From an uncultured bacterium (GTDB lineage: Bacteria > Oederibacteriota > Oederibacteriia > Oederibacteriales > Oederibacteriaceae), in assembly GCA_965112635.1 (NCBI GenBank), contig OZ218778.1:896001-960000 (forward strand): DNA of 64,000 bases, read 5' to 3'. Both the position numbers and the translations under genes were made by a program. This document shows, piece by piece, positions 5,242 through 38,990 of the stretch (within the stretch, counting starts at the first letter, position 1; every line of letters starts with the position of its first letter). Below the pieces are notes generated by a model, which was not told the DNA's origin, made no database searches, and was given only the letters and a program-made list of their open reading frames with translations.

Positions 5242-6087
5242 TTATTCCAAATTACTGTTATTGGGCTGGACCCCTTGATTGATGAGGGGAGGTACATGGG
5301 GGGTAACATTGCGGGGATGGTAGCGATGATAATTATTTGGTAATACTCTCATGGCTGGTTTTGTTGGAGTATCAGGGGTATTGACGAGATTAAAATAAAT
5401 GGACAAACCGCATTTTGTGATCATCCCGCTAAAATCCGCTGAGGCGACAGAGCCTTGGCTCGTCTGCAAATTGCCAGTATTCCAACCAGACAGGGTCACG
5501 GGGTTTAATCTGACCGAGCGATAGCCGACATCCATTCCTATAGAAAAGTTGGGTGCGTAGAAATATTCTACGCCCACTGTATAAATCAAACCAAGGCCTG
5601 AGGCGTTATAACTTGTCCCAGAATAAAAAGGGGAAGGAACATTACTGGTGTCATGGCCGTTCAGTATTTCATAGGCTACGGCTACATCCGACCGCAAACT
5701 CAAGCTGGGCAAAACATTTGGCCAAATATAACCTCCTTTTACAGCCAGTTCATATAAAGGAAGGACCAGGTTGTAACTGTAACCATAAGAGTCTGTGTTG
5801 ACGCTGGATGCATAAATATAATCAAAAGATATTCCACCTTCGATATTGGGGCTAAATCCATACATCAGAGAACCCCCGGATCCCATTCCACTGTTAATCG
5901 GAGCTAGGCTATTGCTACTCAAAGGTGAGATGGTGTTGTTGTTCAAACAATCATTGATGTCACCCATTGTTTCACTTGCAAAATCAATATTACCGCTGAC
6001 ACCCAATTTGCCTTCCCGTCCTTCAGCAAAGGCATCTATGGTTATCAAAATAAAAAGGAGAAAAAAGGTTAACTTTTTCACATTCAA
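5242..6087 (-). CDS. Hypothetical exported protein, probable outer-membrane beta-barrel
   Basis: Signal peptide ending AFA. Alternating Gly/aromatic strands (VGVEYFYAPNFSIGMDVGYR). AT-richer than its neighbours. Confidence 0.6.
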   Translation of the reverse strand: MNVKKLTFFLLFILITIDAFAEGREGKLGVSGNIDFASETMGDINDCLNNNTISPLSSNSLAPINSGMGSGGSLMYGFSPNIEGGISFDYIYASSVNTDSYGYSYNLVLPLYELAVKGGYIWPNVLPSLSLRSDVAVAYEILNGHDTSNVPSPFYSGTSYNASGLGLIYTVGVEYFYAPNFSIGMDVGYRSVRLNPVTLSGWNTGNLQTSQGSVASADFSGMITKCGLSIYFNLVNTPDTPTKPAMRVLPNNYHRYHPRNVTPHVPPLINQGVQPNNSNLE

Positions 6088-6255
6088 ATTCCTTCTTCAG
6101 AGATGTAAAAACATTTTATGCTAATATAATACTTTAGAATTATCAATTTTGTACCAATTTGTAACTATTTGTATAATGATTTTTTTCTGGAGCCCTGTCT
6201 GTGATGATTTATGGTGTTATGATAGTATTAAATATGTTGTTAGAAGTGATTTAGA

Positions 6256-6443
6256 GGAATCAGAGGTTAAGGGCCATCGGGCCGCTTAACCAGCCGGGAG
6301 CGAGGTTTAAAAGCTCAAGCGTCCCTTGGAGGGCGTCCGGTGCCGGTTCAATTCCGGTGCAGGCAGTTCCTTGATAAGTGAGAACTTAAAAAGAAAAACT
6401 GTCAGTTCCTGCCTGTTTTCCTCTCCTAGAAAGGTGTCTGAGT
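6256..6443 (+). ncRNA. Candidate structured cis-regulatory RNA (riboswitch-like leader), class unassigned
   Basis: GC-rich island of nested stems in an AT-rich intergenic region, including a T-loop hairpin GCCGG-TTCAATT-CCGGT and an alternative downstream helix followed by a pyrimidine tract. See findings. Confidence 0.5.
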
Positions 6444-6953
6444 ATGGCCATATCCAAGAAAGTTTCCCCGGTAAAAAAACTTATCCGTAAATTGACAAAT
6501 TTCAGTTTTGGCGGCACCTCGGCCATTATCACCAACATCAGCCTTATCATTGGTTTGGGCACCTCGGATGTGTCCAAATCGGGCATTATTGGCGGCTTGC
6601 TGGTCATTGCCCTGGCTGACAATATTTCCGACTCCCTGGGCATCCATATTTATAAAGAATCGGAAAGCAACAAAATCAGAGAAACCTTGATATCAACCCT
6701 GAGCAATTTTTTTACGCGACTCCTTGTTTCCTTCACCTTTATTGGTGTCGTTCTCATGTTTTCGACAGGACAAGCGCAGATCATTGCGGCAGTTTGGGGT
6801 CTGTTCTTGATCGGAGTCATCAGCTATTTCATCTGCCGCAAAAACCAGAGCGATCCTACCGTTGAAATCGCCACGCATATCGCCATCGCCATCCTGGTCA
6901 TCATAGCCAGCAAGTATATGGGTTATTTGATCCATGAACATCTGACGAAGTAA
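6444..6953 (+). CDS. Small VIT1/CCC1-like membrane protein (putative Fe/Mn transporter family)
   Basis: About 5 TM segments. FSFGGTSAIIT and LVIALADNISDSLGIHIYKESE resemble VIT-family TM1/TM2 motifs. SD GAAAGG. Confidence 0.65.
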   Translation: MAISKKVSPVKKLIRKLTNFSFGGTSAIITNISLIIGLGTSDVSKSGIIGGLLVIALADNISDSLGIHIYKESESNKIRETLISTLSNFFTRLLVSFTFIGVVLMFSTGQAQIIAAVWGLFLIGVISYFICRKNQSDPTVEIATHIAIAILVIIASKYMGYLIHEHLTK

Positions 6954-6979
6954 TAGCTGCAAGGCCGGAGAATAGGGAT

Positions 6980-7852
6980 ATGTACCTGGGAGCGCATGTT
7001 TCTGCGGCGGGGAAATTATGTCATGCCTCAGAAAAGGCCAGAGCTTTGGGCTGCAATTGCATGCAGATATTCGTGGGCAGTCCGATGATGTGGCAAAAAC
7101 CCCATTATTCCATCCAGGAGACAGAGCTCTTTAAATCCAAGAACAAAGAATACGGGATAGGCCCTGTATTCATCCACGCCCTTTACCTGGTCAATCTAGC
7201 TTCTTCCAATAATACTTTATGGAAGAGGTCCATAGCTTTTATCGTCCATAGTATGGAGATGGGTGGAAGGATGGGCGCTCGAGGAGTGATCGTTCATCCG
7301 GGAAGCTTTGGGGAAACCAGCCGGGAGCAGGGAATCCGGCGCATCATTTTGGCCGTCCGATCCATATTCATGATGACCAAAGTAGAAATACCTCTCCTGC
7401 TGGAAACAACAGCCGGGATGGGCAACAGTTTAGCGTCGAGCTTGGAGGACTTGCAGGAGATCTATCAAAGACTGAATAAACCCAAGCGATTAAAAATTTG
7501 CCTTGATACCGCCCATCTTTTTGAAGCCGGTTATGATCTCAGTTCCAAAGAAGGGGCCAACAGAACACTCCACGACCTTAGAAAGACCGGGTTGGGCAGG
7601 TTGGCGCTTGCTATCCACGTCAATGATTCCAAAACACCTTGCGGGTCCAAAGTGGATCGTCATGAAAATATCGGCCAGGGACAGATAGGATTGGGCGGTA
7701 TAAAATATTTCCTCCAAAACAAGATGTTCAAGGATGCCTCCCTTATTCTGGAAACGCCAGGCTTTGACCAGAAAGGTCCTGACCTAAAAAACATGGCCAT
7801 CTTGAGAAAACTTTTGAAGAAGAACTTTCCCGCCCATACAGGGAAACTGTAG
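6980..7852 (+). CDS. nfo: Endonuclease IV (AP endonuclease)
   Basis: GAHVS, HALYLVNLAS, HPGS, LLETTAG, CLDTAH, HVNDSK, DRHENIG and LETP motifs. Confidence 0.95.
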   Translation: MYLGAHVSAAGKLCHASEKARALGCNCMQIFVGSPMMWQKPHYSIQETELFKSKNKEYGIGPVFIHALYLVNLASSNNTLWKRSIAFIVHSMEMGGRMGARGVIVHPGSFGETSREQGIRRIILAVRSIFMMTKVEIPLLLETTAGMGNSLASSLEDLQEIYQRLNKPKRLKICLDTAHLFEAGYDLSSKEGANRTLHDLRKTGLGRLALAIHVNDSKTPCGSKVDRHENIGQGQIGLGGIKYFLQNKMFKDASLILETPGFDQKGPDLKNMAILRKLLKKNFPAHTGKL

Positions 7853-38576: not shown

Positions 38577-38990
38577 CATCTTTGGGTCAGGTTTGCCTCT
38601 TAGGATCGAGTGGTTTATGGCTCCCACAATTTATGACAAGTGTATGCCGAAGCACCCTTGGCTTCGGTGCGGGTCTCGCTGGCATGAAGCCAGCGGCCCC
38701 GTGACAACCACCCTGGCTTCCTTTTCCGCAATTTTATCCAGGAGGGTTTTTAGCCCTGCATTTCATCCCTAGAATCAGTAAATCTGTAATCCTGGATTTG
38801 TAACTTTTACGTTTGCGTAAATGTGAAAGTGACAATTTTCAACGTCTTGGCAGGTAGCGCTAGAGCAGGGAAAAGATCAGAGGAAAATCTTGACATGTGA
38901 CTTTCAAAAAATGAAGGTTCAGTAATAAACCTGAATATTTAAATTTATTTACTTATTATCTAAGTCGCACTAACTATTAAAAATTAATTT

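Follow-up and report, generated by a model that had tools for sequence, protein, structure and literature searches.

A GC-rich, strand-specifically folding block upstream of a VIT1-like gene in an uncultured Oederibacteriota bacterium: a candidate lineage-specific leader RNA

The stretch of DNA analysed here (the window; 64,000 nucleotides, nt) covers positions 896,001 to 960,000 of contig OZ218778.1 (GenBank assembly GCA_965112635.1) from an uncultured bacterium of the phylum Oederibacteriota. Upstream of a gene for a VIT1-like membrane protein it contains a GC-rich block with several predicted helices (window positions 6253–6424). The most likely reading of this block, which we hold tentatively, is that it is a single-copy, lineage-specific leader RNA acting in cis. 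The sequence, its two strong hairpins, its folding bias towards the plus strand and its absence from all known RNA families are directly established. A first-pass annotation made from the letters alone had proposed a new or variant metal-sensing riboswitch; its observation was accurate but over-read, and our results favour a block that is real, strand-specific, unusually well folding and positioned as a leader. As a single sequence without relatives it remains a candidate, and the locus is flagged as such.

The complementary segments on which that annotation was built are all present where it had placed them: the hairpin GGTTAAG-GGCC/GGCC-G-CTTAACC (6265–6291), GCCGG (6293–97) with CCGGT (6337–41), GAGC/GCTC, GCGTCC/GGGCGT, the hairpin GCCGG-TTCAATT-CCGGT (6342–58), GGAA (6256–59) with TTCC (6367–70) and CAGGCAG (6360–66) with CTGCCTG (6409–15). 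The multi-stem fold that it drew from them stood in part. The hairpins at 6265–6291 (hairpin A) and 6342–6358 (the T hairpin) are robust, with pair probabilities of >0.97; the same cannot be said of the GGAA/TTCC closure or of the middle junction. The stem that closes the three-way junction (GCCGG/CCGGU) has a pair probability of 0.13–0.21 and its GAGC/GCUC hairpin one of 0.2–0.37; GCGUCC/GGGCGU reaches 0.65–0.99 in the full-length context. This middle arm (6293–6341) is rivalled by a pairing of 6295–6301 with 6405–6411. The GGAA/TTCC closure has a pair probability of about 0 in the full leader, and in all constructs with 3′ flank it is displaced by a predicted AGAGGAA/UUCCUCU closure. Enforcing GGAA/UUCC in the full leader gave −59.4 kcal/mol against a minimum free energy (MFE) of −73.7 kcal/mol, a cost of ∼14 kcal/mol; the 7 bp AGAGGAA/UUCCUCU closure itself is rated ∼12 kcal/mol better. 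For the 117-nt core (6256–6372) the first-pass structure is at −46.5 kcal/mol, compared with an MFE of −48.1 kcal/mol. When CAGGCAG/CUGCCUG was enforced, the whole domain folded at −71.6 kcal/mol, only 2.1 kcal/mol above the MFE, in a structure that combines the closing helix, hairpin A, the three-way junction, the T hairpin and a long 3′ arm. The best-supported description, on these predicted folds, is a domain of ∼172 nt (6253–6424) with four arms and paired ends, and not a cloverleaf of 115 nt. Its 3′ end falls 4 nt before the Shine–Dalgarno-like (SD-like) GAAAGG.

The strength of folding was compared with shuffled sequences. A 196-nt stretch gave z = −3.22 on the plus strand and −3.47 on the minus strand (−3.9 and −3.65 in a repeat run). 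As a GC island in AT-rich flanks may inflate z, the same measure was applied to 21 other intergenic GC-contrast peaks of the genome; only three of the 21 attained the plus-strand value of −3.9, and most span +0.4 to −2.1. The block folds more strongly than most comparable intergenic GC islands. The plus strand is more stable than the minus strand by 7.5–11 kcal/mol, an advantage that fits the four G–U pairs in the helices listed by the first-pass annotation and the U–G pair in the extension of the T stem, with A–C mismatches on the opposite strand.

The position of the block also favours a leader RNA. It lies in sense orientation between a TATAAT hexamer (6172–77) and the start codon of the VIT1-like gene, in a divergent spacer, a place where no terminator is expected. 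The spacer comprises 356 nt (6088–6443); its first 160 nt have 22–29% GC, and the block with 55–59% GC starts at about 6253, which places the spacer third among 488 intergenic regions by GC contrast on a crude map of open reading frames (ORFs). Open frames of ∼40 codons run through the block on both strands without start codons, the chance expectation at such a GC content. We infer that transcription runs through the element. If so, the ∼172-nt domain would sit in a 5′ leader of ∼260 nt on a probable two-gene transcript for the VIT1-fold transporter and endonuclease IV, and would act in cis on the expression of the downstream gene. With the pyrimidine-rich segment 6405–6427 locked in the domain the ribosome site would be open; once released, the segment would mask it. 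The trigger could be a ligand such as a metal ion, a protein, or a ribosome that terminates at the end of a 16-codon upstream ORF.

It is from the competing partners of segment 6405–6427, as its sole basis, that we infer such switching. Of six predicted folds, four, among them the unconstrained one, have a 3 bp hairpin of AGG (6432–34) with CCU (6425–27). The upstream ORF is suggestive of putative ribosome-coupled control: its stop codon falls at the foot of the predicted closing helix, although ORFs of 16 codons in AT-rich DNA are common by chance. The arrangement resembles leader-peptide and SD-sequestering attenuators in that a short (predicted) upstream ORF ends at the foot of a structure with alternative pairings and in that an anti-SD-like CCUCUCC stands just before the ribosome site; it differs from them in the weakness of its SD-masking helices and in having no evident regulatory codons.

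Transcription termination, by contrast, finds no support in the leader. The first-pass annotation regarded the helix CAGGCAG/CUGCCUG as terminator-like, a suggestion that we do not retain. A terminator scan of 5900–7100 (compact GC-rich stem, loop of 3–8 nt, U-tract with at least five U in eight) returned no site in the leader, and the proposed helix has a loop of 42 nt and four U, unlike the genuine terminators of the genome, which are compact. Nor does the window have an excess of terminator-like sites (16 against 25.9 ± 5.2, and 27 against 26.6 ± 5.1). Canonical terminators of the genome can be seen elsewhere on its contig (G000:C1:168420–168975), where two compact GC-rich hairpins are each followed by UUUU (z = −4.8).

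The element belongs to no family that we searched for. Rfam 15 at gathering thresholds gave no match in the whole window, and a sensitive Rfam search of 6050–6550 gave only three snoRNA-type chance matches (E 2–6), outside the element or at its edge. The first-pass annotation had noted no full match to a riboswitch class; with the Rfam and ARAGORN checks now run, no family was found. It had also thought of a variant of a known metal riboswitch, which the searches reject. The NiCo model (RF02683, gathering threshold 37 bits) finds nothing at E ≤ 10 in 6050–6550; genome-wide it finds three weak places of at most 16.3 bits, none of them at the element. The yybP–ykoY Mn2+ model (RF00080, gathering threshold 45 bits) finds nothing at the element at E ≤ 10 either, and its best place in the genome, elsewhere, scores 8.7 bits.

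The first-pass description of the downstream gene as 'VIT-like' holds by fold, which is that of the iron/manganese transporter VIT1, but not by Pfam for the protein itself. The AlphaFold model of the 169-residue protein has a pLDDT of 89, and Foldseek matches it to the crystal structures of VIT1, PDB entries 6IU3/6IU4, with TMq 0.83, an r.m.s.d. of 1.7 and a probability of 1.00; all other Foldseek matches have TMq ≤ 0.37. Pfam gave no family at E ≤ 0.01 (only DUF1516, at E 0.46), and a profile search against the PDB sequences did not return VIT1. There are 671 homologs at E ≤ 0.001, many of them named VIT1/CCC1 by JGI, and the nearest is 60–63% identical; VIT1 (PF01988) matches are weak in 17 of 38 homologs, with a best E of 0.005. 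On the structural model the protein is a minimal VIT1 fold that lacks the cytoplasmic metal-binding domain (169 versus 224 residues), and its substrate is a prediction. The family as a whole consists of widespread proteins of ∼160 residues with an invariant A-D-N-x-x-D-S … E-x-E motif, which the VIT1 model misses or barely detects.

Metal-sensing leaders control metal transport genes, and the VIT1 fold of the downstream protein also speaks for a leader RNA in general. A new riboswitch for Fe2+, Mn2+, Co2+ or Ni2+ in front of an exporter would be a special case of the leader RNA; we count it within that reading and consider it improbable. The VIT1 fold of the downstream protein and the multi-helix junction in a 5′ leader point towards it, as does a precedent: Fe(II), Co(II) and Ni(II) are all sensed by the czcD/NiCo class, many members of which precede metal-efflux ATPases (PMC9389577). 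The element is like the czcD/NiCo riboswitches (RF02683) in that its predicted junction of several helices stands in the 5′ leader of a gene of the transition-metal transport type, whereas these usually stand before P1B4 ATPases or CDF exporters and not before the short VIT1-like family. The yybP–ykoY element (RF00080) is likewise a leader RNA before Mn2+-exporting membrane proteins, but its model does not match here. Against a metal riboswitch stand these unmatched NiCo and Mn models, the lack of a conserved aptamer and of a canonical terminator, and a short VIT1-like protein that has no metal-binding domain and whose metal substrate is predicted only. A literature search on riboswitches, VIT1 and iron gave no title or abstract that mentions VIT1. 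The homologous genes point the same way. We assembled 162 homolog loci: the best 80 of 139 on genome contigs, the best 80 of 540 on metagenome contigs and two from the phylum. The VIT1-like family is not a habitual riboswitch target, because Rfam scans of 40 of these loci, 20 of them among those with the longest upstream gaps, gave only tRNA genes and no riboswitch. One metagenomic locus (L142, 930–1014) has a tRNA-Tyr gene 68 nt ahead of the VIT1-like gene and co-oriented with it; the sequence of this tRNA gene is unrelated to the element.

A more specific version, in which the element is an unseen riboswitch class confined to one lineage, with the T loop docking on the GG (6328–29) of a hairpin loop within a multi-arm junction and Fe2+ or Mn2+ opening the ribosome site of the VIT1-fold exporter, is a long shot. 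If this riboswitch reading and co-transcription with nfo were both true, metal overload would be linked to the repair of DNA damage. If real, the element would bring to light a regulatory RNA in an uncultured phylum that has been little studied; it might also provide a second RNA route, besides czcD/NiCo, for sensing an excess of iron or manganese, and would connect a minimal VIT1-type transporter with oxidative DNA repair.

Several results weigh against a leader RNA, starting with the block itself. Taken alone, the 117-nt core gave z = −1.70 and was matched in stability by 13 of 200 shuffles, which is not clearly beyond chance. The SD-masking alternatives are weak, being ∼0.2 kcal/mol apart. 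GC contrast fails to predict known RNAs in this genome: among 20 other top GC-contrast intergenic regions, none held an Rfam family and none a paralog of the element. The T loop, the most eye-catching feature, occurs at chance frequency. The 2.88 Mb genome has 60 T-arm-like hairpins, 45 of them in tRNA or tmRNA genes and 15 outside; 14 of these 15 fall within the crude ORF map and one (6342–58) is intergenic, where a non-coding fraction of 7.4% predicts ∼1.1. Taken singly, a T-loop hairpin like that of a tRNA is weak evidence, and so is a GC island that pairs well.

The searches for relatives weigh in the same direction. The element is single-copy in its own genome, and blastn against a further 40 genomes from the phylum yielded nothing but fragments of 14–37 nt, many of which are T arms of tRNAs. 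A covariance model built from the single sequence (entered twice) and the first-pass structure gave no convincing match in the 98 other genomes when run on all 99 of the phylum, and none in further sets of five, nine and 151 genomes. Pattern scans of viral contigs and blastn searches of plasmids and phages found nothing. Conservation in homologous leaders, which the first-pass annotation had named as a check, was not found at the 162 loci: nhmmer gave no match, blastn-short only chance words of 11–15 nt and the covariance model nothing convincing. Most of these genes have little room for a leader, since at the 129 evaluable loci the gap to the upstream ORF has a median of 60 nt (quartiles 11–175) and is at least 250 nt in 18; in the closer relative from the phylum it is 10 nt. 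The VIT1-like gene itself is patchy, being present in three of the 99 phylum genomes. Parts of the stretch also occur in five metagenome runs; none of the seven runs that the search returned is RNA, a result that carries no information on expression. The organism is present at low depth in metagenomes from peat and freshwater sediment. In contigs from four of these runs that cover parts of 6072–6922, the pieces from the same organism show no differences; the copies are identical and offer no covariation. Two further metagenome pieces with 7–10 differences span only the coding positions 6601–6661.

These results make the element specific to this lineage and not a conserved class tied to this gene family. 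Inertness does not follow, because the nearest homolog is only 60–63% identical in protein and most homologs are nearly leaderless.

The candidate matches that arose in these searches were set aside one by one. The top-scoring non-self match among the phylum genomes (G024, 24.2 bits) falls within a 330-residue ORF on the opposite strand, and three others are true tRNA-Leu(UAA) genes. At one homolog locus, L055, a match of 12.4 bits (E 0.43) comes after the gene and not in its leader. A match in an unrelated genome (G122, 28.3 bits, 54 nt) is a copy of hairpin A inside a conserved ORF for a 255-residue membrane protein, on the other strand. There, at the 3′ end of the ORF (L222 1501–1554; G122:C25:4342–4395), a 23-nt stretch agrees with the core of hairpin A at 21 positions, the bulged G included, and the case illustrates that a covariance model of a single sequence can score 28 bits in coding DNA. 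That hairpin A might be a relic of this membrane-protein gene was rejected, as the spacer has no similarity to it at the protein level and an intact copy of the gene exists elsewhere in the genome.

The resemblance to tRNA bears on the explanation that we consider nearly as likely as a leader RNA, though clearly doubtful in itself: that the block is a functionless relic, either a decayed tRNA-like fragment or a scrap left from the acquisition of the gene. The T hairpin fits the T-arm consensus, with a 5 bp stem ending in G53–C61 and a UUCRANN loop; it has 17 consecutive nt in common with the T arm of the same genome's tRNA-Leu(UAA), and its 7 bp stem (6340–6360) is the only one among the 15 T-arm-like hairpins outside tRNA genes. 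The adjacent hairpin and a 5-nt linker look like the anticodon arm and the variable loop of a tRNA: local scores against tRNA-Pro/Thr are 28–34, compared with 20.6 ± 2.3 (maximum 29) for the best of 49 in shuffled sequences; 34 was reached in none of 300. Besides this similarity, the single-sequence model's recovery of genuine tRNA-Leu(UAA) genes from three further genomes speaks for a relic, as do the weak z of the core and the fact that conservation was found nowhere. The presence of the gene in only three of the 99 genomes and a local GC content below that of the genome (40–47% in the coding DNA around the locus versus 51%) are both compatible with acquisition. Yet the Rfam tRNA model does not see the element: at E ≤ 10, RF00005 finds 47 places in the genome and this is not among them. 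ARAGORN reports no tRNA gene in the window at its default setting and none at the 95% threshold; the 'tRNA-Leu(taa)' that it calls here at -ps80 is meaningless, since it makes 2217 calls genome-wide at that setting and the acceptor pairs in four of seven positions. The element shares the T stem and the UUCAAUU loop of tRNA-Leu(UAA) but has no acceptor stem. With no 7-nt anticodon loop and no RF00005 match either, it was rejected as a tRNA. An unconstrained block of 62% GC in a spacer of 22–29% GC would also be expected to decay, and a relic does not account for folding that beats most control GC islands or for the clear strand bias.

The perfect tRNA-type T arm, together with a closed domain with paired ends, also raises the idea of an independent small RNA or tRNA mimic that acts in trans, or to which tRNA-handling enzymes bind, and that stands before the VIT1-like gene by chance, in which the loop CUUGGA, with its adjacent GG, could mimic the contact between the D loop and the T loop. 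We regard this as quite unlikely, as no terminator follows the domain, there is no acceptor stem or CCA and no homologs were found. YrlA Y RNAs, which are bound by Rsr, are bacterial non-coding RNAs whose ends pair and which carry a T-arm module like that of tRNA. The element is similar to them in its T-arm-like module and paired ends, but it sits in a probable mRNA leader and its genome has no Rsr gene: a search for TROVE/Rsr (PF05731) found none in the 96.9%-complete genome, with Deinococcus and Bacteroides as positive controls. A YrlA-type Y RNA is excluded because the genome encodes no Rsr/TROVE protein.

The near-perfect 11 bp palindrome at 6265–6291 could instead be a DNA operator at which a transcription factor acts on one or both of the divergent promoters, an inverted repeat ∼90 bp downstream of the putative plus-strand promoter and ∼120 bp upstream of the minus-strand site. 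There is only a slight chance of this. With its high GC content, 4-nt centre and single bulge, the repeat looks more like a hairpin than an operator. The likely start site lies upstream of it, and it does not overlap the promoter; an operator also leaves the rest of the block and the G–U strand bias unexplained.

The features of the locus are collected in Table 1. The promoter of the VIT1-like gene is a possible one, recognized by eye; it is omitted by the promoter scan, as its −35 element matches at only three of six positions. A Fur-box-like sequence over the −10 element was dropped (11 of 19 matches by eye). The VIT1-like gene and nfo are probably on one transcript, because the gap between them is 27 nt.

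Table 1. Features in and around the divergent spacer, in window coordinates.
Feature	Position	Strand	Basis
Outer-membrane β-barrel gene, divergent	5242..6087	−	PF13505
Promoter-like site of the outer-membrane β-barrel gene	6146–6118	−	Promoter scan
Possible promoter: TATAAT (6172–6177, perfect −10) 17 nt after TTGTAC	6149..6177	+	By eye
Predicted 16-codon upstream ORF MIYGVMIVLNMLLEVI, stop TAG 6252–54, GGAG 6189–92	6204..6254	+	Translation
Predicted closing helix, 5′ strand AGAGGAA, partner UUCCUCU 6418–6424, 7 bp	6253..6259	+	MFE of 196-, 181- and 276-nt constructs
Hairpin A: 11 bp, one bulged G, loop AUCG	6265..6291	+	Pair probability 0.98–1.0
Branched middle arm: GCCGG/CCGGU enclosing GAGC/GCUC and GCGUCC/GGGCGU	6293..6341	+	Complementarity
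tRNA-type T-arm hairpin: 5 bp and two wobble-extended pairs, loop UUCAAUU	6340..6360 (core 6342–6358)	+	Pair probability 0.98–1.0
Long 3′ arm GCAGGCAG/CUGCCUG(C) with inner hairpins; terminator-like helix of the first-pass annotation	6359..6415	+	Ensemble probability 0.08
Pyrimidine-rich segment GUUCCUGCCUGUUUUCCUCUCCU	6405..6427	+	Alternative partners 6295–6301, 6261–63, 6253–59, 6360–66, SD
SD-like GAAAGG, 9 nt before ATG	6429..6434	+	Sequence
VIT1-like gene, 169-residue five-helix membrane protein	6444..6953	+	ORF
Endonuclease IV (nfo)	6980..7852	+	TIGR00587 229 bits, PF01261

Some other places in the genome came to light in the same searches. At G000:C1:1405262–1405350 (plus strand, 89 nt) the Rfam tRNA model scores 22.3 bits, below its 29-bit cut-off, and ARAGORN makes no call; this may be a tRNA-like gene that is degenerate or of an unusual kind. 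ARAGORN does report a 96-nt 'tRNA-Ala(ggc)' at 1279584–1279679 (minus strand) and a 97-nt 'tRNA-Lys(ttt)' at 1910050–1910146 (plus strand) of the same contig, both with mismatched stems and long unpaired regions; these are probably false calls, because the Rfam tRNA model misses both at E ≤ 10. Within the window, the intergenic region 38577–38990 (G000:C1:934577–934990) ranks sixth of 488 by GC contrast, has no Rfam match and folds moderately, with z values of −2.1 and −2.5. The intergenic region G000:C1:1422955–1423451 (L217), which belongs to no Rfam family, holds at about its positions 150–310 an imperfect hairpin of ∼150 nt that folds at −95 kcal/mol, with z = −8.2 and none of 200 shuffles as stable.

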